Source: Ruminococcus albus 7 = DSM 20455
GTDB taxonomy: Bacteria; Bacillota; Clostridia; Oscillospirales; Ruminococcaceae
Direction of reading: 5' to 3'
Length of the DNA stretch: 32,000 bases
Assembly (NCBI RefSeq): GCF_000179635.2
Contig: NC_014833.1
Span: 3,653,409-3,685,408 of the forward strand
Shown: positions 5,766 through 24,341 of the stretch, one piece after another
Position numbering within the stretch: the first letter of the stretch is position 1
How the letters are laid out: the number at the start of each line of letters is the position of its first letter
Translations under genes and position numbers: made by a program
Notes under the pieces: generated by a model
What the model was told of the DNA's origin: nothing
What the model saw: only the letters and a program-made list of their open reading frames with translations
The model's database searches: none

Positions 5766-5903
5766 AAACATAGTAGAATAAATTGTAAACACGTTCATTT
5801 GAAGCAAAATGAGCGTGTTTTGTTTTACATAACCGCCTTTCGAGTGAAGCAGAGAGGACGAATTTATCAAAGGGAGGTAAAGTAACCGGTTATACGCTTA
5901 CAG

Positions 5904-5919
5904 TGTGTCTATAGACACA
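5904..5919. repeat. Palindrome copy A (16-bp core only)
   Basis: TGTGTCTATAGACACA is a perfect palindrome. Flanks are ACAG / GTTC, so there is no arm extension. Confidence 0.95.
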
Positions 5920-5929
5920 GTTCAGCAAC

Positions 5930-5975
5930 CAAAAAGCGTCCGGCACTCACCAAAAGGTGGTGTCAGACGCTTTGT
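5930..5975. terminator. Bidirectional intrinsic terminator, mainly serving the minus-strand genes 7691<-6031
   Basis: Long imperfect hairpin at 5935-5971 (AGCGTC...GACGCT outer stem, CACC-AAAA-GGTG tip), flanked by an A-run on the left and a T-run on the right. Confidence 0.65.
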
Positions 5976-6030
5976 ATTCTTATTAGCTTATTGGTTGAGG
6001 TATAATAGTCTGTGCAATTTAACCTCATAC

Positions 6031-6246
6031 TCACTGAGGATTATTAGGGTTGTTATTCTTGTTTTTGCCTTTGCCTATATTTCTTAGAATGATACCAATC
6101 AACATAAGTAAAAGTACTCCACAAATGATGAATACGCCTATAATTCCTTCAGTTATGAGTTTCGAATTTGGAAAATAGAGGTCTGCAATCACTACCAAAA
6201 ACGCTACTATTCCCAACGCCAAAATAAAATCTCCAAACTTCTTCAT
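6031..6246 (-). CDS. Small membrane protein, two predicted TM helices, 71 aa
   Basis: Hydrophobic stretches FILALGIVAFLVVIADL and IIGVFIICGVLLLMLIGIIL with a Lys/Asn-rich tail. RBS GGAGG upstream. Confidence 0.7.
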   Translation of the reverse strand: MKKFGDFILALGIVAFLVVIADLYFPNSKLITEGIIGVFIICGVLLLMLIGIILRNIGKGKNKNNNPNNPQ

Positions 6247-6275
6247 AAAATAACCTCCTAATTAATATCATTGTT

Positions 6276-7691
6276 TTACGGTATATTATCGCTCATTGGG
6301 TCAGGTATAAGTTGAGGTATATCATCGCTCTTCGTTGTTTTTACGCTTTTGGCAAATTCATAAAACCAACTATCTGCGCTTTCAAGTTCTTCATCGGATA
6401 TGCTTTCTTTGCCATCGCATGGTGCAACAGCAAACGAGAACATAGTATCCACAAAGTTTTCATCCATGCAATGCACGTCTATTAATGAATAACTTCCTCT
6501 CTTGCTCTCATTCTTATAGTCATGCATGGTGTTATCTCTTAATATAATAACTGCTCTGTTTCCATCTTTTTTGATAGTATATGTAAACAGTTTAGAATCT
6601 ATATGTCCAAAAAGACTTAAATCTCTTATTTCTTTTTCACAAAGATTTTTAAGATTATCATCTGTGTATTCCGTAAGGTCAAGCTCCTTTGCACTACCAC
6701 CGAGTTTGTGTATCGCATATCTCTGATCGTTCACTTCATATACGTAAGCACATTTCTCGTAGTTCATATATGCGGGAAGTTCATAGTTTATATCGAAACT
6801 GTAATCACTCATTTGATCCCAAGAGCAACTCGAGAAGCTTTTTATTTCCTCTGGTTTCGGAATATCTTCAAATGAACCGATATAATGTTTTGCCGAATTT
6901 AAATATTCGCTGTTAATCCAAATGTTCGATACAGTTTTAGTTTTAAGGTCTATTTTTACTTCATAATAATACCCGGTTCTGCTGTAAACACCCTCTTCTA
7001 ATTCTTTTTGGTATGATGTGATGCTGGAATCAAGAATATCATTATTTCCTTTTGGTTCAATATAAGCATCCGTCACCATATCCTTTATGTAAAAAAGAGT
7101 ATCCACATCTTCTAAATCGGGTTCGCCCCAAAGCTTGCGGACATCCTCTATCGGCATACCTACCTTTACTCCTTTTGGAAATACCACATCATTAATGTCT
7201 GATAATGAAATAACATTACAATCCGATAATAACTGCTTTTCATCTTTTGTTTTAGTGAAGAAAAAGCTTGTTTTAACATCATCGATAATAACATCATAAA
7301 TACTCGATTCTGCAATGACCGTCGATGGATCATCACCTTGGGTTATTCCATCATTCGCATCATCAGCAAGTTCTACACCGTCCATGTCAAACAGTTCCTT
7401 AGCCGTCATGGGCAATTTTATAACCTTTTCACCCACCTGAAACACATCAGTATACATATCCGCATTCAGTACTTCATCAGCTATCTTTGTTTCAGAATCG
7501 CTTTCATTCTCCGCGGCACTGTCATTATTTTGATTTTCTTCATTTCCACTTTTTTCGACTTCTGTTTTATCATTAGAAATTTTACTGGACTGTGTAACGA
7601 TTTTACTTTCGTTATCTGCATTTCCGCAGCCTGTGATACAGCCACAGATGCATACAGCCGTTATGAGTGATATTAATGCTTTTGTTTTCAT
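6276..7691 (-). CDS. Lipoprotein of unknown function (471 aa)
   Basis: Start moved to the ATG at 7691 (RBS AAGGAG). The N-terminus MKTKALISLITAVCICGCITGCGN is a signal peptide with a lipobox Cys. Confidence 0.8.
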   Translation of the reverse strand: MKTKALISLITAVCICGCITGCGNADNESKIVTQSSKISNDKTEVEKSGNEENQNNDSAAENESDSETKIADEVLNADMYTDVFQVGEKVIKLPMTAKELFDMDGVELADDANDGITQGDDPSTVIAESSIYDVIIDDVKTSFFFTKTKDEKQLLSDCNVISLSDINDVVFPKGVKVGMPIEDVRKLWGEPDLEDVDTLFYIKDMVTDAYIEPKGNNDILDSSITSYQKELEEGVYSRTGYYYEVKIDLKTKTVSNIWINSEYLNSAKHYIGSFEDIPKPEEIKSFSSCSWDQMSDYSFDINYELPAYMNYEKCAYVYEVNDQRYAIHKLGGSAKELDLTEYTDDNLKNLCEKEIRDLSLFGHIDSKLFTYTIKKDGNRAVIILRDNTMHDYKNESKRGSYSLIDVHCMDENFVDTMFSFAVAPCDGKESISDEELESADSWFYEFAKSVKTTKSDDIPQLIPDPMSDNIP

Positions 7692-7919
7692 AAAAATACT
7701 CCTTAGAATATGATTTTGTAACATAAATATTATACCTGAATTAAGAAAAGATGTCAATAGATTTGTTAGGTGTCCTTAAATAAAACGTAAGATAATATAA
7801 TTTTAGCTGTACAATATAACTCCCTAATAGACATTGACTTTTTTACTAAGCTATGATATATTATTAGTTATAAACAAACTGTCTATGAAAGTATATGATT
7901 TCAAATGGAGGTGCTAGTC

Positions 7920-8336
7920 ATGAATAATAAACTAATTAACAATGAAACTGAAAAATTTGGTCTAAAAGTGGGTGCTGTTTCATTACTTATCAACACTGGC
8001 ATAGCTTATTTGTATATGTCTCGTTTTCAAGGTTTTGATACTGGCATACAGATATTATTAGCTTTTCTGATAACGATTCTTATGCCGATTGTTTTTCTCG
8101 TATGCGTTCAACATAAATTCAATATTAGTTTAATAATACTAGCAATATCATCTATATGGTATGCAGGCTTCATTACTGGCTTTGGCGTACATCTATTCAA
8201 ATATAAGGAAATAACACTATTACGTACTATTGCTTTTTTAATAATAGGGATAATGGAATATGGTTTTCATATGTATATCTGGTTTTTCCTTGATCAGATA
8301 ATAATTAAATATAAGCACATAATGCGCCGAAAATAA
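7920..8336 (+). CDS. Integral membrane protein, about 4 TM helices, 138 aa
   Basis: ATG at 7920 after the RBS GGAGGTG. The ORF is highly hydrophobic. Promoter TTGACT-17-TATATT upstream. Confidence 0.7.
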   Translation: MNNKLINNETEKFGLKVGAVSLLINTGIAYLYMSRFQGFDTGIQILLAFLITILMPIVFLVCVQHKFNISLIILAISSIWYAGFITGFGVHLFKYKEITLLRTIAFLIIGIMEYGFHMYIWFFLDQIIIKYKHIMRRK

Positions 8337-8352
8337 TCTTTAAAAAGTATAC

Positions 8353-8368
8353 TGTGTCTATAGACACA
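8353..8368. repeat. Palindrome copy B (16-bp core; only the right flank is consensus-like, CTTT)
   Basis: TGTGTCTATAGACACA with flanks ATAC / CTTTTC. Confidence 0.95.
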
Positions 8369-8377
8369 CTTTTCAAG

Positions 8378-8420
8378 AGACACCCATTCAAGCTAATGAA
8401 GCCTGAATGGGTGTCTTTTA
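8378..8420. terminator. Intrinsic terminator hairpin between convergent genes
   Basis: AGACACCCATTCA (8378-8390), 13-nt loop, TGAATGGGTGTCT (8404-8416), then TTTTATT. Confidence 0.7.
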
Positions 8421-8425
8421 TTGAT

Positions 8426-8614
8426 TTACAGCGTTTTCCCATAATATTTGATTGTCTTTATGATAGGATCTCCACAATTATTGACTTTGCCAAGCTTAAT
8501 CAATTCTTCATGTACCACCTGTTCCGCCTGCTCTTTGGATTCAGCACTTACCGCAACACACTTTGGTATACTCTTGAAATTCGACCACCGGAAATACACG
8601 TTGTAAATATTCAT
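8426..8614 (-). CDS. Small hypothetical protein, 62 aa (last gene of a four-gene operon)
   Basis: RBS AGGTAGGTGA upstream. Tightly packed behind the upstream genes. Confidence 0.6.
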   Translation of the reverse strand: MNIYNVYFRWSNFKSIPKCVAVSAESKEQAEQVVHEELIKLGKVNNCGDPIIKTIKYYGKTL

Positions 8615-8626
8615 TCTATCACCTAC

Positions 8627-8839
8627 CTAAAAAACACATTCCTTAACACCGTATATAAACACATTGCCGTACTCACGATATGCTATGCCTTTTGAAATCA
8701 ACAATTCAGAAAACTCTTTAAGTTGCTTATCAGTCATAGCAAATGTGACATTATATAAATCATTTTTCATTGGCTTCAAATCGCAGGGAGGACTATTCTT
8801 GATATTATTAATAAGCACTATAAACCTTTCATTAGTCAT
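8627..8839 (-). CDS. Small hypothetical protein, 70 aa
   Basis: The ATG at 8839 overlaps the TGA of the upstream gene (TGATG coupling). RBS GGGGGTGA. The listed start at 8842 is a TTG. Confidence 0.6.
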   Translation of the reverse strand: MTNERFIVLINNIKNSPPCDLKPMKNDLYNVTFAMTDKQLKEFSELLISKGIAYREYGNVFIYGVKECVF

Positions 8840-9024
8840 CAACTCACCCCCTCTCGTCTAACATCTTCAGCTTCCATGAAGTAGAAGTATCCATCATTGA
8901 GTCTGTTCAGCTCGTTGCAGTTTTCCTGAGCTTCTTTATCCGTACAGTATTTAGTCGATACGTGAAGATCTCTGCAAGTAGCCTTTTCACCAATCTGCTT
9001 GAAAAAATAGTGAACTGTTTTCAT
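8839..9024 (-). CDS. Small hypothetical protein, 61 aa
   Basis: The ATG at 9024 follows AAGGAG, which lies at the 3' end of the upstream 53-aa ORF. Confidence 0.6.
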   Translation of the reverse strand: MKTVHYFFKQIGEKATCRDLHVSTKYCTDKEAQENCNELNRLNDGYFYFMEAEDVRREGVS

Positions 9025-9028
9025 ATCC

Positions 9029-9190
9029 TCACTCCTTCAATATCTTCGCACTGAGTATCTTGATGTTGCCACTTCCGTAATGATCCTTAACGATCTGGAT
9101 CGCCTGCCGGCGGTCATTAACTCCGTACACTCTTGTTCTCTCATGGAAACAAAGTCCTTTGAACATAAATACTACAATGTAATCTTTCAT
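9029..9190 (-). CDS. Small hypothetical protein, 53 aa (below the ORF-track cutoff)
   Basis: Hand translation from the ATG at 9190 (RBS AAAGAGGTG) gives MKDYIVVFMFKGLCFHERTRVYGVNDRRQAIQIVKDHYGSGNIKILSAKILKE, with the stop at 9029-9031. It is the first gene of the operon. Confidence 0.55.
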   Translation of the reverse strand: MKDYIVVFMFKGLCFHERTRVYGVNDRRQAIQIVKDHYGSGNIKILSAKILKE

Positions 9191-9244
9191 GTTAGCACCT
9201 CTTTCAATTTTTTAGGGGATTTCTTATTACATATATAGTATAAC

Positions 9245-9342
9245 ATATTGCTAGCAATATTTCAATTGACATTTTATCTGATTATTGCTAGCAATATTTG
9301 TATACTATTGATATTGCTAGCAATAAAGTATTGTGCTATAAT
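9245..9342. promoter_or_regulatory. Divergent control region with three copies of the palindromic operator TATTGCTAGCAATA, plus the + strand promoter
   Basis: Palindromes at 9245-9260 (16 bp), 9283-9296 and 9312-9325 (14 bp each). The promoter is TTGCTA (9315-9320, inside the third operator), 16 nt spacer, TGcTATAAT (9334-9342). Confidence 0.7.
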
Positions 9343-9361
9343 AATCATGGAGGTGATCTCA

Positions 9362-9571
9362 ATGTCTGAGAATAATGAAAAGAAAACCTACTACAAAAAA
9401 ACACAGAGTAAGTCGGTTGTAAAGTATATCTCAAATAACTACGATCAAATCTCGGTCCGCATACCCAAAGGCAGCCGTGAGCGTTACAAGGAATTTGCTG
9501 AAAAGTGCGGTACAAGCCTTAATTCACTTATAGTTGAATTATTGGAACGTGAAATGAACAATGAGGATTGA
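9362..9571 (+). CDS. RHH (Arc/MetJ/CopG-like) transcriptional regulator, 69 aa
   Basis: ATG at 9362 after GGAGGTG. The segment QISVRIPKGSRERYKEFAEKCGTSLNSLIVELLEREM shows the classical RHH strand-helix-helix pattern. Confidence 0.75.
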   Translation: MSENNEKKTYYKKTQSKSVVKYISNNYDQISVRIPKGSRERYKEFAEKCGTSLNSLIVELLEREMNNED

Positions 9572-9598
9572 TTTTTTTCTTTTCTCTAGGATACTATA

Positions 9599-9620
9599 AA
9601 GTGTGTCTATAGACACACTT
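9599..9620. repeat. Palindrome copy C (22-bp perfect palindrome)
   Basis: AAGTGTGTCTATAGACACACTT. It is preceded by the T/C-rich block TTTTTTTCTTTTCTC (9572-9586). Confidence 0.95.
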
Positions 9621-9623
9621 CGA

Positions 9624-9652
9624 TTGACATAATAACAAACAAATGATATAAT
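9624..9652 (+). promoter_or_regulatory. Consensus promoter of the HipA-like gene
   Basis: TTGACA (9624-9629), 17 nt spacer ending in TGA, TATAAT (9647-9652). It starts 4 nt after palindrome C. Confidence 0.6.
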
Positions 9653-9672
9653 GTTCTAAAGGCGGTGAGGTA

Positions 9673-10806
9673 ATGAACAGATACAATATAATGCACAAGG
9701 ACAAGCTAGTTGCACAGGCTGAAGACAGCAGAGTTACTGCGGTCTTTGATAAGGCTCTATGCCCAAACAGTATTTTTGTAGATGCCGACCTTGAGGTGTG
9801 GCTAAAAAGCAGGAGTATCGATACTCATCGTTCTAATTCCCGCAGGCTTTACAAATTTCTTCGCATGAAAACTGATGCGGATATTGATGAGATAATCAAT
9901 ATCGGTCACGGTATAACAATTACAGATAACTGGTGGATACAGCGTGAGGACGAGATGCTTGACTATTCGTCGCTAAAACAGTATAATGAAGAGCTTGCTG
10001 ATATTTCCTTATACGGTTTTTCCAACAAGTGTAAAGATAAATCAAAAGGATACACTCAGCTTGGTACGATCGGAAGCTATGAAAAAGCATGGCGTTTTTC
10101 AGACGATGCATGGTATATGTACAAGTTGGGCAGTAAAACAGAACTTATCTCGGAATACTATGCGCACTGCTTTCTGAAAAAGTTGAATGTGAATTGTGCC
10201 GAGTACAAGGTTGAAAGACGTGTACTTGAAACGGGTCTTGAACAGGAATGTATCATAACCAAAGATTTTACGCAGAATGCGCTTTTCGATTTTGAACCAT
10301 TCTTCAATTATTTCAACGATAACGAAGATCCTGATTTCATACTGACAAGACTTGCTCAGATGGAAAAGAATAATACCATGTCGGGGCTTGTAGAGGATTA
10401 TGTTAAGATGTGCTATTATGATGCGCTTCTTATGAACGTTGACAGACACAATCTTAACGCAGGATTTCTCAGGGACAGCGAAAACGGAGGTATACTGTGT
10501 CTTGCTCCATGCTTTGATTATAATCTTTCGCTTTCCGCTGCCGTATCACTGCATTTTAGTGAAGATAAATCGGACCTCATGAAGTATTTCACCGAGAACG
10601 ATAGGCTCATGGAAGTCATGGATCCTCTTATGCCCGGGAGAGAAGAAATAATTTCTGCGGTCGAAACAGCAGAGAAAAAGACGAAATTAGCCTTTCCTAA
10701 TGACAATTTCAAATATTCGCTGTTCAGCGATTATGTTATTTCGGCTTATGACTATTGCGGTAAAATGATATCAAAAGAAAATAAAAACACCTATTCAAGA
10801 CGCTGA
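9673..10806 (+). CDS. HipA-like serine/threonine kinase domain protein (toxin-like), 377 aa
   Basis: The C-terminal half carries LLMNVDRHNLNAGFL ... LAPCFDYNLSL. This matches the HipA-family catalytic (D.H..N) and Mg-binding (AP.[FY]D) motifs from memory. Confidence 0.65.
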   Translation: MNRYNIMHKDKLVAQAEDSRVTAVFDKALCPNSIFVDADLEVWLKSRSIDTHRSNSRRLYKFLRMKTDADIDEIINIGHGITITDNWWIQREDEMLDYSSLKQYNEELADISLYGFSNKCKDKSKGYTQLGTIGSYEKAWRFSDDAWYMYKLGSKTELISEYYAHCFLKKLNVNCAEYKVERRVLETGLEQECIITKDFTQNALFDFEPFFNYFNDNEDPDFILTRLAQMEKNNTMSGLVEDYVKMCYYDALLMNVDRHNLNAGFLRDSENGGILCLAPCFDYNLSLSAAVSLHFSEDKSDLMKYFTENDRLMEVMDPLMPGREEIISAVETAEKKTKLAFPNDNFKYSLFSDYVISAYDYCGKMISKENKNTYSRR

Positions 10807-10825
10807 GCCTGAATAGGTGTTTTTT
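10783..10825 (+). terminator. Intrinsic terminator overlapping the 3' end of the HipA-like gene
   Basis: ACACCTATTCA (10787-10797), loop containing the TGA stop (10804-10806), TGAATAGGTGT (10810-10820), then TTTTT. Confidence 0.75.
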
Positions 10826-10844
10826 CTTTTCTCGCAGATAGTTC

Positions 10845-10868
10845 AAAGTGTGTCTATAGACACACTTT
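10845..10868. repeat. Palindrome copy D (24-bp perfect palindrome)
   Basis: AAAGTGTGTCTATAGACACACTTT. It is preceded by TTTTTCTTTTCTC (10821-10833) plus 11 nt. Confidence 0.95.
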
Positions 10869-10901
10869 AGAAAATGGGCTATTGTTTACAACTCAATATC
10901 T

Positions 10902-11273
10902 TCATCTACTTTTTTCTTGTTCTTTTAAATATCTCTTAATTGCGCTATCGACGAATGCTATAATAGCAGCATTCAAGTCTTCTGGGGTCTTTTCCAACTC
11001 TATATCTTCCGGGGTCGTAGGCTTTTTTCTATTTTCATACCAATAGCAGAACAAAGCTATTACACCGTTAATTTGTACATCAGAATAGTTTTCAAATTCC
11101 TTCTCAACATAAGATATTAAATCGTCAGTATCCTTGATTTTTTCTTGAGCAAAAGCATTGATATCTTCATTATTATCAATGATAATGTTATTTTCTTTTA
11201 AAAAATCCTGAAAATCATCGGGATTAATAGATGAAAAGTTCTTAGCAAAATTGTCAAATATACAATAATTCAT
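10902..11273 (-). CDS. Acidic hypothetical protein, 123 aa
   Basis: Own consensus promoter on the minus strand: TTGACA (plus-strand coordinates 11331-11336), 17 nt spacer, TATAAT (11308-11313). RBS AAGAGGTG. About 26 Asp+Glu versus about 14 Lys+Arg by hand count. Confidence 0.65.
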   Translation of the reverse strand: MNYCIFDNFAKNFSSINPDDFQDFLKENNIIIDNNEDINAFAQEKIKDTDDLISYVEKEFENYSDVQINGVIALFCYWYENRKKPTTPEDIELEKTPEDLNAAIIAFVDSAIKRYLKEQEKSR

Positions 11274-11357
11274 ATGGACACCTCTTATCTACAAATTAAT
11301 ATGATTAATTATATCAAAAACACACCATATTGTCAAGTCATATAAGAGTGTACTATC

Positions 11358-14144
11358 TTACTTCCCTTCCGTCAACTTCTGATACATCTTCATCAGCTCC
11401 GCCACACACTCACTCTCAGTCATGGTCTTGTAGTCAAAGCCGTATGCCTGCATCACAGCCTTATCGTTGAGTTGGTGAGCCTTTCGCAGTTCGGGTGGCA
11501 TAGTTGTTTCATCGTAGAGATCGGCAAGGGAGCAGTCGGGATATTTGGCTCTTGCATCGAGTATCATCTGTGCTGTTTTTTCTATGGTTGCTTTCTGTTT
11601 TTCATCGGGACTGCACCATGGGAAGTTATTGTAAACAATGTTTATTGAATAACTGTAATCACTTTTTAGTCTACCAGTTACAGCTCTCATCCAAGCCATG
11701 TGGACATTTGATGTCAACACTCCAAATTGATATTTGTTTGCGTCGGGAATCATAAATAGCTTGTCTCCCGCAATTATATCAGATCCTAAATATCCCATAG
11801 GGATATAACGCCTGTTTTCAGATGATACCTTTGGAAGGGCTATAAATGTTTTGGGATTCATAGTTTCCCTAAATAAAGTCGGAGTTGCTGCAAGTTTCTG
11901 TCGTCCTTTATCTGGGCTTTTTTCTCTTGCTTCTTTACAACATTGTACCCTTTTCTTTACGATAGGCATTTTATTCAATTCAGCAGGAGAAGCACCAACA
12001 AGCCAAAGGCAATATCTTGGTACGTTGTTAATAAACTCGTATCCCATCATAAATCGCTTTATATATTTTGACGATAATGGCTCTTTATTTATAAGCTCAT
12101 CAGCTTCATCTGGAGAAAGAATTAAATACCCTCCATCAGTTGGTCTATTGCCGGATAGCATTTTTGGAATATTACAAATGGCTTTAGTTCTACTTTCAAT
12201 AAAAACATCATTTGCAGCAACAAGATAAGCATTGATATTCTTTACTATTTGTTCAACACCATTATCAAATAGTCTCCTATCCACTTTGTTTTCCGCAATA
12301 CTAAATCCCACAATAACACAATGAACTTTGGCTTTCAGACTTGCTTCACTGTCCCAGCGGAAAGTTCGGTGTGCAAAGTCAATATGTATTCCGAAACGGT
12401 CATACAGTGGTTTCCACACACCTGCGACCTGTTCGCCCTGCGTTATACTGTTGGTAGAAACAAAAGCGGTTCTGATATTGGTGCCGACCATAAGCTGTGA
12501 AGCCTTGAAATACCATGCAGCAACATAATCTATCTTACCGGCGGTCTTGTACGGATTTCCCTTATCGTCAACATAAATGCACAGTATATCATTTTTCTGA
12601 CTTTTCGATTGCAGAGAATAACCAACAAATGGCGGATTGCCCATAATGTAAGACAGCTTGTCCTTTGGAACGACACTCTCCCAGTCGATGCGGAGAGAAT
12701 TGCCCTCGGTGATATTTGCATAGCTTTTCAACGGCAAAAAATCAAGGGTATACTGTATGATCTCCTCGGTTTCGTGCATCATCTGCGCTTCGGCTATCCA
12801 GAGGGCTGTTTTGGCAACAGTCACAGCAAAGTCGTTTATCTCAATGCCGTAAAATTGCCCGATACCGACCTTAATAGGGTTAAAGTCACCCTCGCCGCCT
12901 ATGAGCATCTGACCGCCGTGTATTACTTGCAGCGCTTCATTCTCCAATCGGCGCAGACTTATGTATGTTTCCGTAAGGAAGTTACCTGAACCGCAGGCAG
13001 GATCGAGGAACGTGAGTGAAGCTAGCTTATCTCTGAACTGCTCCAATTTCGCTTTTCTTGTTTTATCGACCTTAGTTTCGCATATCGTATTGAATTCTGC
13101 TTTCAGCTCATCGAGGAAAAGAGGGTCAATGACCTTGTGGATATTCTCGATAGAGGTATAGTGCATACCGCCTGAACGTCTTGTTTCGGGGTTCAGAGTG
13201 CTTTCAAATACTGCGCCGAAGATCGTCGGGCTGATCTCCGACCAGTCAAATCCTGCGCTTGCATTGTTCACAAGCAGATCCACGATTTCATCTGTAAAAC
13301 GCGGAATTTCGATGTTTTCATCGGCAAACAAGCCACCGTTCACATAAGGGAACGCAGCAAGGTCATCGTCCATATAGGGGTCACGATCTTCGGGTTTGGT
13401 GTCAAGAACCGTGAACAGCTCGATAAGTGCCTTGCGGATATCTTTTGCTTGAAACTGTTTCAGATACCGCCCGAACATTTCATGCTTGCCGAAAATGCCT
13501 GCATCTTCCGCATACAGGCAGAATACAAGCCTTACGCACAGCATATTTAGGCTTTTCAGCGTATCAGGACTATCAGGCTCCTTGTACTGTTTCAGGATAG
13601 CATCATACAGCTTACCAACAAGCTCACCTGCCTTCAAGGAAATTTCCATTTCCTTTTTCAGCATTTCGCTACCTGTTTCCACAAGGAATTGCAGACGGTA
13701 GTAGTCCTTTGCAAGGTCTTTCAAGAATATCTGCTCAGGCTCACCGTTGGGCTTTTCCATGTCGTAGACAAGGAATTCCTCGAAGTTGCAAGTCACTATC
13801 CATCGAGGGTGCTGCGATAACGGCAGCTCCGTCACATAACGCTTCGCTTGCTGGAACGGATTGAGCAAACTTCCGTCCGATTGCTTAATAGCCTTGCGTA
13901 AGTCTTTGCCGATAGACTTCTGTTCTATCATAACACGTGTGGACTTTATATAACCGTCAATAAATGATGTGTGATCCAGATGCACCTGATCTTCAAAAGT
14001 AATAAAGCCCATAGCATTTTCTATACCGTAAACGTGTTCAAGCAAGTCAGTCCAGAACTGCTGTGACTGTCCTTTTTCATAGCCTTTACCCTTCCAACGC
14101 TCGGCAAACTCCTTCGCTGCCTTTTTCTGTTCTTTTTCAGTCAT
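11358..14144 (-). CDS. MmeI-family Type IIL/IIG restriction-modification enzyme (fused nuclease, N6-adenine methyltransferase and specificity domain), 928 aa
   Basis: Start moved to the ATG at 14144 (MTEKEQKK). N-terminal PD-(D/E)xK-like FIDGYIKSTRVMIEQKS, AdoMet motif FLDPACGSGNFL, catalytic motif GNPPFVGY. Size and domain order match MmeI-like enzymes. Confidence 0.85.
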   Translation of the reverse strand: MTEKEQKKAAKEFAERWKGKGYEKGQSQQFWTDLLEHVYGIENAMGFITFEDQVHLDHTSFIDGYIKSTRVMIEQKSIGKDLRKAIKQSDGSLLNPFQQAKRYVTELPLSQHPRWIVTCNFEEFLVYDMEKPNGEPEQIFLKDLAKDYYRLQFLVETGSEMLKKEMEISLKAGELVGKLYDAILKQYKEPDSPDTLKSLNMLCVRLVFCLYAEDAGIFGKHEMFGRYLKQFQAKDIRKALIELFTVLDTKPEDRDPYMDDDLAAFPYVNGGLFADENIEIPRFTDEIVDLLVNNASAGFDWSEISPTIFGAVFESTLNPETRRSGGMHYTSIENIHKVIDPLFLDELKAEFNTICETKVDKTRKAKLEQFRDKLASLTFLDPACGSGNFLTETYISLRRLENEALQVIHGGQMLIGGEGDFNPIKVGIGQFYGIEINDFAVTVAKTALWIAEAQMMHETEEIIQYTLDFLPLKSYANITEGNSLRIDWESVVPKDKLSYIMGNPPFVGYSLQSKSQKNDILCIYVDDKGNPYKTAGKIDYVAAWYFKASQLMVGTNIRTAFVSTNSITQGEQVAGVWKPLYDRFGIHIDFAHRTFRWDSEASLKAKVHCVIVGFSIAENKVDRRLFDNGVEQIVKNINAYLVAANDVFIESRTKAICNIPKMLSGNRPTDGGYLILSPDEADELINKEPLSSKYIKRFMMGYEFINNVPRYCLWLVGASPAELNKMPIVKKRVQCCKEAREKSPDKGRQKLAATPTLFRETMNPKTFIALPKVSSENRRYIPMGYLGSDIIAGDKLFMIPDANKYQFGVLTSNVHMAWMRAVTGRLKSDYSYSINIVYNNFPWCSPDEKQKATIEKTAQMILDARAKYPDCSLADLYDETTMPPELRKAHQLNDKAVMQAYGFDYKTMTESECVAELMKMYQKLTEGK

Positions 14145-14248
14145 AGTAATACCCCCATGAATGGAATGATTATCACCATACATTATATCATATTTTCTTG
14201 AATGGTTCAACTGAAATTACATAATTTTGATATTTTTATAAAAGGCAC

Positions 14249-14277
14249 TTGACAAATAAGCTAAAATCTATTATAAT
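14249..14277 (+). promoter_or_regulatory. Consensus promoter for 14340..16010
   Basis: TTGACA (14249-14254), 17 nt spacer, TATAAT (14272-14277). The upstream context AAAAGGCACTTGACAAATAA closely resembles the promoter at 17300. Confidence 0.6.
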
Positions 14278-14339
14278 ATAGGAAATTGCTAGATACTTTT
14301 ATCGAAACGCTTAATGATTCAATCGAAAGGAGAAAATCA

Positions 14340-15419
14340 ATGAAACAAGTAAAAATACAAAAAAACATCAACCTACGTGACCAAAAAACAAAAAACTTAA
14401 TTGAAAAGCGTAGTGCTGATTTGGCACAAGAATTAAATCAATCGACATCATTCGTGATAGAAAAAGCTTTACTCGAAGGGTTATTTCCCAAAAATAAGGA
14501 AGCATGGGATTTGACAACAAATTTTCTTTACAGTGATGAACCCAATAGCGTAAAAGATACGCTTTATGCTGTCTTTCAAAAAAATACAACAGGAATCCGA
14601 AACTCAGTACATGATAATTTATTGCCGATAGTAATGTTTTGTTTAAAACACTATAAGGGTCCTTCTAGTTTTTCATTTAAAAATCAGGAACTATATCATC
14701 TTATTGATCAGCTAAACTTAATAATTAAAAGAGTAGAAAATTGTGTTTCCGGAACAATTGATACAAAGGAAAGAGCATTTTTATATGACAGAGCAATTAA
14801 TGCAGCGGATTTGATTAAAAGACTCAAAGAAAGTCCGGAAAAGATTAACCCATATTATATTTTTGAACTAATAGCCGACTTTTTTGCGATGCTTGATGAT
14901 TTTCTTTATGCTTTCACAGCATTATGCGATTTAACTACGATTTGTCAATTTGAGGAAAATGTAAACACGAGGATTGAGCTATTTAATATAATATGTGAAC
15001 TTTCAACTGATTGGGATTCAGAGCCTGAAAAAGAAGATAACAAAATGAGCATATATCCTGAGCTTTACTTATTAAATCGAGTTAAATTTAAAGTTATTGA
15101 GGATGAGCGTTTTCCTACTGATTCTCTTGGCGTTTATGCCAATGATGCTTGTGTTGGATATATAACTCCTGTAATGGATCAATTACTCTGGAAAAAAAGT
15201 TTTGACATAGATAATCCTCGATACCAATTCAAGGATGAAGACATATTTGCATCAGTAGTGGCAGAGTTAAAGAAATATAAAAACGATCATGGATACAAAT
15301 ACTTAGTAATAGATAGTTTGTGCGAAGGATATGCAAGTATACTTGACCACGCATTGATTAGTCGAGTAGGATTTAAACAATTACCGGATAATCATCCATC
15401 ACTCTATTATTTAGAGTAG
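14340..15419 (+). CDS. Hypothetical protein, 359 aa, with an RHH-like N-terminus and a possible GNAT-like C-terminal region (weak)
   Basis: ATG at 14340 after AAAGGAG. The N-terminus KQVKIQKNINLRDQKTKNLIEKRSADLAQELNQSTSFVIEKALLEG has an RHH-like pattern. The C-terminus ...GVYANDACVGYITPV...VVAELKKYKNDHGYKYLVIDSLCEGYASILDHALISRVGF loosely resembles an acetyltransferase fold. Confidence 0.5.
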   Translation: MKQVKIQKNINLRDQKTKNLIEKRSADLAQELNQSTSFVIEKALLEGLFPKNKEAWDLTTNFLYSDEPNSVKDTLYAVFQKNTTGIRNSVHDNLLPIVMFCLKHYKGPSSFSFKNQELYHLIDQLNLIIKRVENCVSGTIDTKERAFLYDRAINAADLIKRLKESPEKINPYYIFELIADFFAMLDDFLYAFTALCDLTTICQFEENVNTRIELFNIICELSTDWDSEPEKEDNKMSIYPELYLLNRVKFKVIEDERFPTDSLGVYANDACVGYITPVMDQLLWKKSFDIDNPRYQFKDEDIFASVVAELKKYKNDHGYKYLVIDSLCEGYASILDHALISRVGFKQLPDNHPSLYYLE

Positions 15420-15437
15420 GATAAGGAGGATATAAAA

Positions 15438-16010
15438 GTGAGAATATCAGATTTACATTTTTCAGATGAAACAGAGTTATCATATTCGGCAATAACTCCG
15501 TATTTATTTAAAAAGGAAAATGAAAACGGAGCAGCTGAATATAATGAATTAGTGAAAGCACTTATCAAAAATGCTGCTGACACAGATGATTTTGTAGCTA
15601 GTTATCTTGATGAAGCAACTGCTGTAAAACATAATTATTACAAGTCCGAATGTTACCAGATCATGCTAAAAATATATGACAACAATAAAGCTAAAGAATA
15701 CTGCCGTAAAATGCTCGGAAGAAAATCGAGAACTACAATATCTGATGCAGAATCACTAAAAATTGGAAATGAAAACTCTGTGATGTATATTCCTTCTTTA
15801 GGCACAAGCACATATACACGTTATGCAATATTAGAAAAAAATGAATTTTACGCCGATAACATTATGACTCATATGTTATCATTTGAAGGTACCAAGTTTA
15901 ATATCTATCTGCAAGACAAAGGAGAAGAAAATAAAATTGACAAAGTATTGGATAACGGCAAATATAGTGTATATTCATTCGATGGGATAATGGCACTAGT
16001 AAAAGAATAA
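15438..16010 (+). CDS. Hypothetical protein, 190 aa (GTG start)
   Basis: The GTG at 15438 lies 8 nt after the strong RBS AAGGAGG and 19 nt after the preceding stop, so it is probably co-transcribed. Confidence 0.6.
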   Translation: MRISDLHFSDETELSYSAITPYLFKKENENGAAEYNELVKALIKNAADTDDFVASYLDEATAVKHNYYKSECYQIMLKIYDNNKAKEYCRKMLGRKSRTTISDAESLKIGNENSVMYIPSLGTSTYTRYAILEKNEFYADNIMTHMLSFEGTKFNIYLQDKGEENKIDKVLDNGKYSVYSFDGIMALVKE

Positions 16011-16024
16011 AAAAGCATCAAAAA

Positions 16025-16064
16025 AGCACTCATTCAAAATTTAATCATGAAAGAGTGCTTTTTT
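16025..16064 (+). terminator. Intrinsic terminator
   Basis: AGCACTCATTCA (16025-16036), loop, TGAAAGAGTGCT (16048-16059, one mismatch), then a T-run. Confidence 0.7.
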
Positions 16065-16122
16065 AAGAAATCATTCGTACTGTAAATTCACATAAAATAC
16101 GATTCTTTTTCTCCTGGACAAT

Positions 16123-16148
16123 TAAAGTGTGTCTATAGACACACTTTA
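16123..16148. repeat. Palindrome copy E (26-bp perfect palindrome), overlapping the integrase stop codon
   Basis: TAAAGTGTGTCTATAGACACACTTTA. The integrase stop codon (TAA on the minus strand) occupies 16146-16148. Confidence 0.95.
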
Positions 16149-17120
16149 GTAAATCTCATCAAGCTTTGTCATCGCAGTCTTTTTTTGCTCCTCTATGACA
16201 TGATAATAGAACTTCATCGTTATCGAAATATCAGAATGACCTAGGATCTCGGAAACGACCTTAATATCAGTTCCTTGTCTGAGCAGCAGCGTTGCAAATG
16301 TATGACGCAGCGCGTGAACAATGTCTTTCTTCCCGTTAATTCCGCAGTTTTTAAGTATACGCGACATAGTGCGATGAATAGCACTTGGATCAACTAACAG
16401 ACCATTCTCCGTGGTGACTATCCTATCATTATCTCCCATTATAGCGTGTATCTTTACTAAAGCATCAAGTGCTGTTTTATTGAGTGGAACATAACGAACA
16501 GAATTTCGTGATTTGGGAGAATTTACTATCTTTTCATACTTCATGCTGCTGTCCCCTCTTGTTTTTACCGACGAAACGCTGTTATGTACGTAAACTATTT
16601 TATTTGTAAAATCTACATCAGACCAACTAAGTGCAAGAGCCTCCCCAACACGCAGACCGGTATTTAGCATAAACACGATGAAATAACCGTACCTATACTT
16701 AAAACTGCCATTATTATAAGTTGAAATAGCTTCGGCAGCAATCGCCCTCGCCTGTTCGGGAGAGTAATATACTACCGTTTCATCAGATTTATTATTTTTG
16801 GGAAGAACAACCGATAGTATAGGATTCTTCTTTATATCCCCTTTTAAAACCGCAAGGTCAAGACAACTCTTCAGATTAACGTATGCTTTTTTGGTAGTAC
16901 TATAAGAAGAACGTTCTGAAAGATTATTCAACATCATTTGAATATCATCAGCAGTCAGTTTCTTTAACTTTATTTTGCCTATAGCCGGGAAGATCTGATA
17001 ATTTAGGCTCTGTTCTACCCTATCATACGAAGAACGCTTTAATGATGGGCGTTTAGTATTAATAAGCCATTTTGTCATGTACTCCTCGACTGTGTTGTTG
17101 CTCTGTTTCTCGAATAACAT
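16146..17120 (-). CDS. Tyrosine site-specific recombinase / integrase, 324 aa
   Basis: Start moved to the ATG at 17120 (RBS GGAGGA). N-terminal SAM-like core-binding domain. Catalytic motifs TGLRVGEALAL (Arg I), HALRHTFAT (H-x-x-R) and LGHSDISITMKFYYH (His/Tyr). Confidence 0.9.
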   Translation of the reverse strand: MLFEKQSNNTVEEYMTKWLINTKRPSLKRSSYDRVEQSLNYQIFPAIGKIKLKKLTADDIQMMLNNLSERSSYSTTKKAYVNLKSCLDLAVLKGDIKKNPILSVVLPKNNKSDETVVYYSPEQARAIAAEAISTYNNGSFKYRYGYFIVFMLNTGLRVGEALALSWSDVDFTNKIVYVHNSVSSVKTRGDSSMKYEKIVNSPKSRNSVRYVPLNKTALDALVKIHAIMGDNDRIVTTENGLLVDPSAIHRTMSRILKNCGINGKKDIVHALRHTFATLLLRQGTDIKVVSEILGHSDISITMKFYYHVIEEQKKTAMTKLDEIY

Positions 17121-17170
17121 TAAAAATATCCTCCAAAGTATGTATTCCTGTGCAAAAACGCACAAGAAAT

Positions 17171-17199
17171 ATAATACCAAAAAGAGGATAACACGTCAA
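17171..17199 (-). promoter_or_regulatory. Probable integrase promoter
   Basis: On the minus strand: TTGACG (plus-strand coordinates 17194-17199), 17 nt spacer, TATTAT (17171-17176). Confidence 0.5.
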
Positions 17200-17299
17200 T
17201 AAATTATATAAAAATACACATCTGATATATCAATATATATATCAGCGAGAAAAAGAACAAACAAATTAAAATTTATTCAAAATTATTTTTTGAAAAGGC

Positions 17300-17328
17300 T
17301 TGACAAATAAAAAACGATGTGCTATAAT
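17300..17328 (+). promoter_or_regulatory. Near-perfect sigma-A promoter firing into ORF-free sequence
   Basis: TTGACA (17300-17305), 17 nt spacer ending in TGC (extended -10), TATAAT (17323-17328). Confidence 0.65.
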
Positions 17329-17334
17329 ACATAT

Positions 17335-18049
17335 AGTGGGCTAGAACAACAAAACACCCACCTGTGGCTTAAATGAACGCCAATTCAAGTAAGCCATCAG
17401 CACAAATGCTCGGCTAAAGCAGATGTGAGACTTTTACAGATGGATGCATCAATGTCCATGTTATCTATTATAGCATGGTTTTGATATATTTGTCAAGGAG
17501 TTTTCAGTATGCTTTTGCGAGTAGTGCTGAGAACTCTTTTCTTTTTCCCGTAAGACTTACGGATCCTACGGCTGACTCCAGTTGAACTGAATAGCCAGAG
17601 AGAGAAAGTAACCTCGACGAGACCTCAATAACTGCTGAATCATTCAGCTGCATTGAAACAGTTTGCATTTGCAAGCCTGCCTAATGGCAGCTACCTCAAT
17701 GTACGCCGTGACCACTTAGTGACAGTAAGTGCAGCGAGTATAAACACTGTGGTGTGAGCTACCGGGGAGGTAATCGGGAAGTCATGGTCTGTATCGACTA
17801 TGCAAAGGGCGCAGCCGACAGCAAGGTGTATTTGCTAAAAGAGTTTGTCACTCTTCAGAATACACTGATGACTAGGCGATCTAAATGATCTGCGTCAAAA
17901 GGAAAACTTTCAAGGCAATCAAAAAAAGTTATTTCCGCTCTGCAACAGCGGTGATAATATAAAACCAACAGGCTGGTATAGCAGTACCGCTTGTTGGCAC
18001 AAATTCACTGAAACCAATGGACTTGTGCCAGCAAGTGAATTGCATACAC
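17335..18049 (+). ncRNA. Candidate large structured non-coding RNA (about 0.7 kb); class unverified, boundaries approximate
   Basis: The supplied track has no ORF of 60 aa or more on either strand between 17181 and 18413. A consensus promoter lies upstream. Many local hairpins are visible: 17548-17562, 17634-17648, 17677-17690, 17935-17951 and a 13-bp stem at 17965-17997. Interleaved pairings 17996-18002/18023-18029 and 18002-18009/18034-18041 have pseudoknot topology. Confidence 0.55.
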
Positions 18050-18065
18050 TGTGTCTATAGACACA
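18050..18065. repeat. Palindrome copy F (16-bp core; right flank CTTTAG as in D and E) at the element/chromosome junction
   Basis: TGTGTCTATAGACACA with flanks ACAC / CTTTAG. It lies 10 nt from the U-tract of the rrn-tRNA operon terminator. Confidence 0.95.
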
Positions 18066-18075
18066 CTTTAGATAT

Positions 18076-18110
18076 GAAAAGCCCCCGCAAGGGAATTTCT
18101 TCCCTCACGG
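18076..18110 (-). terminator. Intrinsic terminator of the rRNA-tRNA operon
   Basis: Minus-strand RNA CCGUGAGGGA-AGAAAU-UCCCUUGCGG (two G-U pairs), followed by GGGCUUUUC. Confidence 0.75.
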
Positions 18111-18116
18111 AGATAG

Positions 18117-18189
18117 CAGGGGCACCAAGGATCGAACTCGGGACACGCGGTTTTGGAGACCGCTGCTCTACCAGCTGAGCTATACCCCT
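18117..18189 (-). tRNA. tRNA-Trp (anticodon CCA)
   Basis: Hand-folded cloverleaf, 73 nt: acceptor AGGGGTA/TGCCCCT, anticodon loop CTCCAAA, T-loop TTCGATC, discriminator G. No encoded CCA. Confidence 0.93.
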
Positions 18190-23556: not shown

Positions 23557-23769
23557 GTTGTATCCTAATACTCTTCTCAGAGTAATTATGATCTCAGTTT
23601 CGTTTCACTGAACGTTTGTACATTTTCTTAGTCTTGTACTTGACTCCGATGAATTTATTCATCGTCAATACTTCAATCACTCAAAGTATTTTCAAGGGTT
23701 TTCGTATTCTTGGTTGTTCAATTTTCAAGATGCCTTTTCGTTGTCTGTCTTTTGTCAGACAACTCATTT

Positions 23770-24170
23770 ATTATACCACACTTTTCTTCATTTGTCAACC
23801 CCTTTTCAGAAGTTTTTTGAAGATTTTTTTCATCTCTTTTTCAGAGATTTTTGTGTGTTATAAGCTTTTCTATTATACCACATTTTTCTTCGTTTGTCAA
23901 GTCTTTTTCAGAACTTTTTTGAAGCTTTTTTCTGAGCAGTTCTTTTTTACTGAACTTTTCTCTCGTGCGGTACTTTTTATTATATCACATTTTCTCGCTT
24001 TTGTCAAGACCTTTTGTGATATTTTTTTCTGCCTTTTTTCAAGTTCGCTTTTTCTGAACTACTCCCCCGCTCGTTCTCTTATCCCTAAGTTTCCTGCGGT
24101 TTTTCGCTCTTTTCGCTCGCTCTCTCGTTGACAGCTTAATTATTATACCTCGTTTTGCCTCAAAAGTCAA
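23770..24170 (-). promoter_or_regulatory. Four tandem rRNA promoters (P1-P4)
   Basis: On the minus strand there are four -35/17-nt/-10 units. Plus-strand coordinates, -10/-35: 23770-75/23793-98 (TTGACA-TATAAT), 23872-77/23895-900 (TTGACA-TATAAT), 23979-84/24002-07 (TTGACA-TATAAT), 24142-47/24165-70 (TTGACT-TATAAT). Each sits behind A-tract-rich, UP-element-like sequence. Confidence 0.7.
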
Positions 24171-24341
24171 CCCCTTTTTCGACTTTTATTTTAAACAAAC
24201 AGTTAATATTTCGCGAAAATTTTCCTTTATTTCTACTTTATATTGTTCAGCTTATTTGAACTTAATTTTATACTGGCTATTATTGATAATTAGCTTAATT
24301 TTGCTTTAATTAAAATTATGCAATTAGCTATTTCAAACTAC

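Follow-up and report, generated by a model that had tools for sequence, protein, structure and literature searches.

A conserved structured RNA at the predicted attachment end of Ruminococcus integrative elements

A 32,000-nucleotide (nt) stretch of the Ruminococcus albus 7 genome (contig NC_014833.1, positions 3,653,409 to 3,685,408; hereafter the window) contains, between two copies (E and F) of a palindrome, a tyrosine integrase gene and a non-coding region that encodes a large structured RNA. Sequence comparison indicates that this E–F segment is the right-hand, tRNA-proximal end of a Ruminococcus integrative and conjugative or integrative and mobilizable element (ICE/IME), inserted in the 3' half of a tRNA-Trp gene at the end of an rRNA operon. 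The RNA belongs to a previously undescribed family with at least three variants (type A, type B, and a short form), and it goes with the attachment end of the element and not with the integrase gene. By analogy with the promoter Porf7 and the canT RNA of Tn916, we tentatively favor, with less than even confidence, the reading that the RNA unit is a regulated cis-acting leader, which would read across the attachment site of the circularized element (attP) into the backbone operon after excision.

Covariation and variants of a two-module RNA

The first-pass annotation of this DNA had proposed a single large RNA in the non-coding region. The RNA was borne out by strong covariation, but it was not a single unit: the region comprised two modules, a leader of ~210 nt followed by a structured RNA of ~500 nt (~710 nt together), with a predicted antisense promoter inside the leader. 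The 3' module, a type A RNA (17547–18045, plus strand), had 24 helices and, within the block AGCGAGUAUAAACACUGUGGUGUGAGCUACC, an invariant hairpin capped by GUGA. Homology of the non-coding region ended at 18045, just ahead of copy F, in agreement with the earlier observation that the 3' end of the RNA abuts this palindrome.

Folding of the non-coding region as a single sequence gave a z-score of −5.2. RNAalifold predicted 88 pairs from 12 sequences, 33 of which showed compensatory changes. A more complete structure had 138 pairs, with 91.9% of the cells paired, compared to 32–39% when the partners were slid, and compensatory change was found in 51 of the 138 pairs, compared to 5–16 when slid. 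None of 500 shuffles reached the observed values.

No open reading frame (ORF) in the 3' module was conserved across lineages. A 44-aa ORF at 17754–17888 was considered and rejected, as only close relatives kept it and the frames differed in L005 and L014 (homologous loci are given L numbers throughout). There was also no other supported ORF between copies E and F, which matches the earlier description of the segment as consisting of the integrase gene and the non-coding RNA region only. Rfam searches returned no match to the RNA at gathering score when the whole window was scanned, and only chance-level matches at E ≤ 10 when the region was compared to 4227 families. The ROOL, GOLLD, OLE, HEARO, EAR, put, and ctRNA families gave no gathering-score match to the RNA, and our literature search found no described RNA of such a kind.

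The 3'-terminal hairpin CCAACAGGC...GCTTGTTGG (17965–17997, plus strand) was common to all variants. Type B terminal RNAs of ~500 nt were found in L027 (9477–9985), L035 (10397–10892), and L036 (13009–13534). They were homologous to one another and predicted to be structured, and the parts that they had in common with type A were the 3'-terminal hairpin domain and the ACUGUGGU motif only. The third, short form of the RNA was located at 14026–14392 in L007. In the window (17998–18045) and in L027 (9930–9985), GCTTGTTGG could pair alternatively with an upstream CCAACA(G/A)G or with a terminal (A/G)GCAAG(T/C), and these two mutually exclusive 3'-end structures could act as a switch. The terminal hairpin may also stop read-through from the tRNA operon, because, read on the minus strand, it leads into UUUUAUAUUAU.

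Such a stop bears on a quite improbable alternative, namely that the structure acts at the level of the DNA or of the opposite strand, either as an insulator or terminator against read-through from the rRNA-tRNA operon or as a single-strand origin (sso) in the transferred single-stranded DNA (ssDNA). Conjugative elements transfer as ssDNA. The native terminator of the tRNA operon has been displaced by the element, lineages in which the RNA abuts the tRNA have no separate terminator, a U/A-rich run comes after the universal terminal hairpin when the minus strand is read, and the alifold energy of the reverse strand was nearly equal. However, G:U cells outnumbered A:C cells by 142 to 41 and many G:U pairs were invariant; because of this excess, the plus-strand transcript was favored as the folding strand. 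The conserved consensus promoter and attenuator also drive the plus strand, 500 nt of covarying structure far exceed what a terminator needs, and the window lineage keeps the whole RNA despite having its own terminator at 18082–18113.

The 5' leader module (17336–17546, plus strand) contained conserved helices followed by an intrinsic terminator, with a stem at 17495–17538 and a U-tract to 17546. Upstream of it was a sigma-70 consensus promoter (17300–17328, plus strand; TTGACA-17-TATAAT with an extended −10 TG, 12/12), which was kept in most homologues. Inside the leader, an antisense promoter was predicted on the minus strand (17496..17467; TTGACA-18-TATAAT with TG, 12/12). In the alignment of 12 homologues, the antisense-promoter blocks TGTCAAG and ATTATA(G/A)CA were invariant or nearly so and were among the most conserved columns, and the predicted sense promoter, antisense promoter, and terminator were all conserved. 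The predicted starts were at ~17336 for the sense and ~17460 for the antisense transcript, giving an overlap of ~125 nt in the leader, with the antisense transcript running toward the integrase gene. The leader terminator is a predicted attenuator, and the antisense RNA and the terminator probably set the level of read-through together, by countertranscript-type attenuation.

The leader was separable from the 3' module, as in L036, where a helix-turn-helix (HTH) gene came after the leader. In L014 (887–1171) and at the equivalent place in L025, beside tRNA-Asn, a 94-aa ORF of no known family was found between the leader and the structured RNA. A second leader copy, with promoter, antisense promoter, and attenuator, was located between traG and the rep region in L035 (2739–2958), L036 (4320–4550), and L037 (4275–4505). 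This duplicate suggests that rep and the terminal RNA could be regulated jointly by a single antisense RNA.

The leader copies also bear on the reading that the RNA controls replication of the excised element, which we considered unlikely. The RNA would then be a structured pre-primer or leader under an antisense RNA, in the geometry of ColE1 RNAII/RNAI or of pIP501/pT181, with the origin or the rep genes lying across attP. Consistent with this, the ~125-nt sense/antisense overlap is at the 5' end of the ~710-nt RNA and is followed by a terminator, the leader copy is directly upstream of the rep region in L035–L037, and genes for Rep, topoisomerase III, and ParA/ParB are carried by the element. 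A weak ctRNA-like Rfam match at 17496–17547 points in the same direction, but at 18.9 bits it was far under the threshold of 50 bits. Moreover, no origin-like repeats were seen at the 3' end of the RNA, the window has no leader copy ahead of rep, and we know of no ColE1-type priming in Clostridia.

The attachment end and the distribution of the RNA

Among the relatives, the element backbone had the order ParA-ParB ... MobL relaxase, type IV coupling protein (T4CP), Rep, HTH protein, topoisomerase III, cargo, integrase, and RNA. The left part of the window contained the C-terminus of T4CP, two small tandem paralogues, Rep, the HTH protein, and topoisomerase III, and an equivalent backbone bearing MobL was found in L003, L027, and L035–L038. 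To the right of the RNA, all on the minus strand, were a terminator, the genes for tRNA-Trp/Met/Glu/Lys, and then the 5S, 23S, and 16S rRNA genes.

The attachment core was a 47-nt segment (18115–18161, minus strand) which spans the 3' half of tRNA-Trp, starting at the anticodon loop and including the 3' end, and it is presumably this core that the integrase recombines. At the left junction in R. albus SY3, the native tRNA terminator preceded a 47-nt copy of window positions 18115–18161 (100% identity), after which came the left end of the element, in which many co-directional genes follow the 47-nt repeat. In R. albus AR67 (L010), the match to the window extended to 18160, at the tRNA-Trp anticodon loop, after which a second element starting with ParA/ParB began; a partial tRNA copy separated these two tandem elements. 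The element in the window has its left end outside this stretch, and the direct repeat was read from SY3 and L010. The intrinsic terminator of the rRNA-tRNA operon in the window (18082–18113, minus strand) is element-borne, since it is unlike the native chromosomal terminator found at the SY3 left junction.

Homologues of the RNA were sought beside integrase homologues, by 20-mers in species-representative genomes, and by 18-mers in metagenome contigs. The 20-mer scan identified seven RNA loci, all in Ruminococcus, and the 18-mer scan yielded four true matches; in the collections scanned, the RNA was found only in Ruminococcus. BLAST searches with the RNA in phage and plasmid collections returned nothing, and viral contigs scanned with two invariant RNA words gave zero matches.

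The RNA family was present in every integrase-homologue context (50–99% identity) with a visible tRNA-side end, which comprised the window, L010, L018, L009, L011, L020, L029, L005, L007, L027, L035, L036, and L038. The RNA was adjacent to and divergent from the integrase gene in L010, L018, L009, L011, L020, and L029 (integrase identity 99.7–62%), where a palindrome was found at the integrase stop. It was also adjacent in L005 (58%), where a palindrome was located between integrase and RNA, as in L006. A MazEF cassette separated the two in L038 (51%). In L027 (54%), L036/37 (53%), and L035 (50%), a type B RNA was on the same strand as the integrase gene and 1.2–3.3 kb off behind cargo, and L007 (57%) had the short RNA form. 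Across L038, L035, L027, L007, and L036, the integrase-RNA gap was 0.9–3.3 kb and held cargo genes, often with integrase and RNA on the same strand. Five loci (L013, L012, L014, L025, L008) had the RNA with no integrase in the available flank. Two of these, L013 and L012, remained at the tRNA-Trp locus, the RNA in L012 being 5'-truncated and beside a T4CP remnant. The co-occurrence of integrase and RNA homologues, which had been suggested as a check on a functional link, was therefore found in all contexts with a visible tRNA-side end, but adjacency varied and the RNA also occurred without the integrase. This co-occurrence is real, and its explanation is that integrase and RNA are both parts of a single element family.

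The 3' end of the RNA faced the tRNA in the window, L011, L012, L018, L023, L005, L007, L027, L035, L036, and L038, and the RNA gene abutted the 3' end of the tRNA in L005, L007, L027, L035, L036, and L038. At all loci showing a backbone (the window, L003–L005, L007, L012, L027, and L035–L038), the RNA was co-directional with it. No plus-strand terminator was found between RNA and tRNA in L005, L007, L027, and L035. Since the arrangement of integrase and RNA varied, the constant features were the position of the RNA, last before the attachment end, and its direction, which is outward from the element. Its place next to a tRNA is explained by the attachment site being half of a tRNA gene.

With this orientation, circularization would place the RNA ahead of the left-end genes (those for ParA/ParB among them), with both transcribed in the same direction. 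According to the leader reading favored here, the RNA unit would be attenuated in the integrated state and would run harmlessly into the tRNA operon, and once the element had excised and circularized, the left-end genes and the backbone operon would lie downstream of it. The structured RNA would now serve as a cis-acting leader, most probably a processive antiterminator like Tn916 canT or pLS20 conAn2, while the antisense-controlled attenuator would set the level of read-through. Transcription from the regulated promoter would cross attP and pass internal terminators, so that expression of transfer and replication genes would be coupled to excision. A hairpin with a U-run was predicted on the plus strand upstream of parA at the left end, and another after the rep promoter, at 1315–1343. 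In Tn916, Porf7 and the 452-nt cis-acting canT RNA are near the right end and, after excision, upstream of the conjugation genes (PMC11658703), and canT transcription crosses the joint and overrides the terminators T1–T3 only after excision (Wirachman & Grossman 2024, PMC11658703). A cis-acting antitermination system is also known from pLS20, with conAn2 as its RNA component (PMC8191782).

Several points weigh against the leader reading. No similarity to Tn916 canT was found when the RNA and its profile were compared to the orf8-xis region of pCF10 Tn916 by nhmmer and blastn, and no Rfam antiterminator family (EAR, put) matched the RNA. Promoters, attenuator, and antisense RNA alike are predicted from sequence. 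The central domain was inconstant: the type B RNAs (L027, L035, L036) and the L007 form keep the terminal domain and a short motif, and the essential part could be the terminal domain or the DNA. The alifold energies of the two strands were near-equal (−185.6 vs −177.0 kcal/mol) and not decisive for the choice of strand. Copy F and a hairpin intervene between the RNA and the attachment site in the window lineage, and the left-end genes of SY3 have a promoter of their own. The RNA was also found beside tRNA-Asn (L014, L025) and tRNA-Leu (L008), with no element backbone visible there. Our confidence in the leader reading stays tentative because canT homology was lacking and the central domain varied between lineages.

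Alternatively, though this is rather unlikely, the RNA may be a stand-alone, trans-acting structured module with a role in maintenance, exclusion, defence or anti-defence, or some other process, antisense-attenuated and independent of transcription across attP. It has its own consensus promoter, a complex conserved fold, and a GNRA-capped invariant hairpin, as in ornate trans-acting RNAs, and it stands in line with promoter-bearing cargo cassettes (toxin-antitoxin, restriction-modification). It persists where the element has decayed or the backbone is not visible (L001, L013, L014, L025), and in the window lineage it is followed by a hairpin (copy F). However, the RNA was found in every intact family member at one fixed position and orientation, whereas the cargo varied. 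In most lineages there was no terminator at its 3' end, and the central domain was swapped between lineages while the position stayed the same.

The integrase, the palindromes, and the cargo region

The integrase gene (16146–17120, minus strand) encoded a protein of 324 aa. Its start was the ATG at 17120, behind GGAGG, and not the TTG at 17180, and its TAA stop (16146–16148) was, as noted earlier, inside the extended copy E. The protein had Phage_int_SAM_3, Phage_int_M, and Phage_integrase domains (Pfam Phage_integrase E = 2e-28), and its translation contained the catalytic motifs GLRVGE, HALRH, LGHS, and KFYYH, in keeping with the R..K..HxxR..H..Y pattern. The nearest solved structure was that of an 'Int protein' (PDB 6emy/6emz/6en0), which we take to be Tn1549 Int. 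The promoter predicted for the gene (17199..17171, minus strand; TTGACG-17-TATTAT, 10/12) was conserved in L001. Both promoters named in the first-pass annotation, this one and that of the RNA, were recovered and were conserved in homologues. The 9-bp inverted repeat reported between them (17222–17230 / 17237–17245) was likewise present in this divergent promoter region and amounted to two degenerate GATATATC palindromes. It was retained only in relatives with an integrase at least 95% identical, and homology to R. albus 8 (L013) started just downstream of it, at 17251.

The integrase began at the SAM-like domain, without an N-terminal arm-binding domain. The RNA-associated integrases were 310–332 aa long and lacked the ~55-aa N-terminal domain of 378-aa relatives, whose ~55 extra residues are probably an arm-binding domain. 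No excisionase-family gene (HTH_17) was found among the called neighbours of the RNA-associated integrases. A 378-aa integrase gene in L028 (5767–7137) was beside an HTH_17 excisionase-like gene in a Mob_Pre-type mobilizable element, and this element had neither the RNA nor the palindromes.

A link between integrase and RNA keeps a small probability because the integrases are arm-less and no Xis gene was seen among their called neighbours. We consider it very unlikely that the tyrosine integrase uses the RNA as a cofactor in recombination at the attachment site or the palindromes, whether for guidance, as an architectural scaffold, or to set directionality. We give the same very low probability to a scheme in which the RNA beside the attP core could replace the arm-site/excisionase architecture and set the direction of recombination of an arm-less, Xis-less integrase. 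Such a cofactor would be consistent with the element-level co-occurrence across integrases 50–99% identical, with the location of the RNA gene right beside the attachment core, and with the finding that the associated integrases have no N-terminal domain and no HTH_17 neighbour, while the 378-aa L028 relative has both and no RNA. A guide-type partnership, raised purely as a hypothesis in the first-pass annotation, was not substantiated. When the RNA was compared to the adjacent tRNA/attachment region in both orientations at 8 loci, the longest shared or complementary substrings were within the shuffle range, whichever tRNA (tRNA-Trp, Asn, Leu) was the neighbour. Complementarity to the palindromes was also not above shuffled controls, and the match to copy F was just 8 nt, by eye. 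Furthermore, adjacency, relative orientation, and the palindrome bracket were not conserved, the central RNA domain differed among lineages using the same tRNA-Trp site, and the RNA occurred without an integrase in the available flank. If true, a cofactor role would make this the first RNA partner of a tyrosine recombinase and would extend RNA-assisted recombination to tyrosine recombinases.

The palindrome AAAGTGTGTCTATAGACACACTTT had six copies in the window (5900, 8349, 9598, 10845, 16124, 18046), compared to 0 expected from 100 shuffles. The perfect core was 16 bp and identical among the copies of one element, and the extended palindrome was 24–26 bp. Copy E (16123–16148 extended; TAAAGTGTGTCTATAGACACACTTTA) overlapped the integrase stop, and copy F (18045–18070 extended) was 3' of the RNA in the window, L010, L012, L013, L018, and L023. 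These two copies had led to the earlier view of integrase and RNA as one site-flanked unit, which did not hold across the relatives: copy F was absent in L001/L011, where the RNA led directly into the tRNA terminator, a palindrome was located between integrase and RNA in L005/L006, and cargo separated them in others. The palindrome-bracketed integrase-RNA unit is an accident of the window lineage.

Palindromes were found between complete transcription units in all copies examined (the window, L001, L003–L006, L010, L018, L027, L030, L038). Each was flanked by self-contained promoter-gene-terminator modules, and its centre was common within an element and differed between elements. The lineages of L007, L026, and L035–L037 had no palindromes. 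A variant palindrome, AAAGTGTGTCACGCGTGACACACTTT, was observed in four copies in L027 (2001, 7677, 8576, 9169) with unchanged arms; the centre was ACGCGT instead of TATA, 2 nt longer, and some copies were then followed by U6–7. That one variant core is shared by all four L027 copies looks like concerted evolution of sites within the element.

The possibility that the palindromes are attachment sites or cassette borders was rejected, since attachment takes place at the tRNA-Trp half and the breakpoints of the mosaics were elsewhere. The breakpoints between the window and L018 (9311 and 11083/15322) and that of L013 (17251) were not at palindromes, and the L009 breakpoint at 16096 was the only one within ~30 nt of a palindrome. 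Identical sites that flank modules and share a centre within an element would fit a cassette system, but they are equally expected for protein-binding sites. The idea that the palindromes are ordinary terminators was weakened by the canonical terminators that already precede copies A, C, D, and E. Consensus promoters followed several copies, and a terminator scan called just one palindrome copy of the window, on one strand. A T-rich flank common to copies C, D, and E was dismissed as a palindrome feature, being the U-tract of the upstream terminators. In viral contigs, the palindrome was matched once in each of three unrelated contigs, with no integrase or RNA nearby.

Multiple dispersed intergenic palindromes on an element with ParA/ParB genes resemble the ParB-parS and KorB-OB systems. 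The palindrome core TGTGTCTATAGACACA was alike at 10/16 positions to what we take to be the Bacillus parS consensus, TGTTTCACGTGAAACA, and the L027 half-sites TGTGTCAC/GTGACACA each agreed at 7/8 positions with this presumed parS. Unlike parS, the palindrome was conserved over 24–26 bp, the L027 variant had two additional central bases, and some copies carried terminator-like U-runs. We regarded the palindromes as candidate element-specific protein-binding or insulator sites, and not as boundaries of an integrase-RNA cassette.

The cargo region (5900–16148) consisted of self-contained modules, each with a consensus promoter, one or more genes, and a canonical terminator, with palindromes between them. 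Its products included an MmeI-family restriction-modification enzyme (11358–14210, minus strand), a HipA-like protein (9673–10806), and an Arc-like protein (9248–9571). The proteins encoded at 6276–7757, 14286–15419, and 15438–16010 had no family match. In L018, with an integrase 97% identical, window positions 11084–15321 were absent, a stretch of 4.2 kb with the MmeI-like gene, and the breakpoints were inside the flanking ORFs. Upstream of rep, the tandem paralogous small ORFs at 878–1063 (61 aa) and 1093–1287 (~64 aa) each had a promoter-like site before them, and by eye their products resemble ribbon-helix-helix proteins. The rep promoter was at 1284–1312, directly followed by the terminator-like hairpin at 1315–1343. 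At the other end of the window, four tandem repeats of ~61 nt (23769–24201) were found upstream of the 16S rRNA gene. These repeats are probably stacked promoters of the rRNA operon, because the first copy reads TTGACA-17-TATAAT on the minus strand.

Comparison with known systems

Like the IS110 bridge RNA, the IS1111 seekRNA, and the omega RNA of IscB/TnpB, the RNA described here is a structured RNA near a mobile-element end and, in the window, beside a recombinase gene. It differs from these guide RNAs in that the recombinase is of the tyrosine family, no loops complementary to target or donor were found, and adjacency was not conserved. The window RNA was also several times larger than the bridge RNA. 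With ROOL and GOLLD it shares a large size, a high degree of structure, an association with the rumen and Firmicutes, and a location near tRNA genes on a mobile element. Unlike in the case of ROOL and GOLLD, the tRNA adjacency is explained here by the attachment site, and cmscan gave no match to these families even at E ≤ 10.

The leader module resembles the countertranscript systems pIP501 RNAIII, pT181 RNAI/II, and pCF10 prgQ/Anti-Q in its convergent consensus promoters and its ~125-nt 5' overlap followed by an intrinsic terminator, and its additional location upstream of rep in L035–L037 is a further likeness to such systems. Unlike in pIP501, pT181, and pCF10, the controlled product in the window is a structured RNA and not a rep or conjugation gene. 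Whatever its function, this is an undescribed ~500-nt structured RNA family in elements that carry defence and toxin-antitoxin cargo.

The proposed leader resembles the conAn system of pLS20 (ConAn1 and conAn2), in which a cis-acting RNA is located in the long leader of a conjugation operon with internal terminators. Unlike in pLS20, no ConAn1-like gene was identified beside the RNA, an attachment junction separates the RNA from the operon, and no homology was shown. If the leader reading is true, the family would represent a second, unrelated, and much better conserved case of the canT principle, whereby an RNA at one end of the element enables the transfer genes only once excision has taken place. 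Its covariation-supported fold and antisense switch would then provide a tractable structural model for RNA control of conjugation in gut and rumen Clostridia.

Compared to Tn916, canT is located upstream of xis-int, whereas the RNA described here is the last feature of the element, after or beside int. The Ruminococcus element also has no visible xis, a dedicated antisense-controlled attenuator on the RNA, and a tRNA gene as its target. In common with canT, the RNA is a non-coding RNA of a few hundred nt (452 nt there and ~500 nt here) near the right end of an integrated conjugative element, with a tyrosine integrase in the same end region. In Tn916 terminators follow downstream, and candidates for such terminators are predicted here. 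By analogy, the RNA may be a variant of the element-end leader RNAs.

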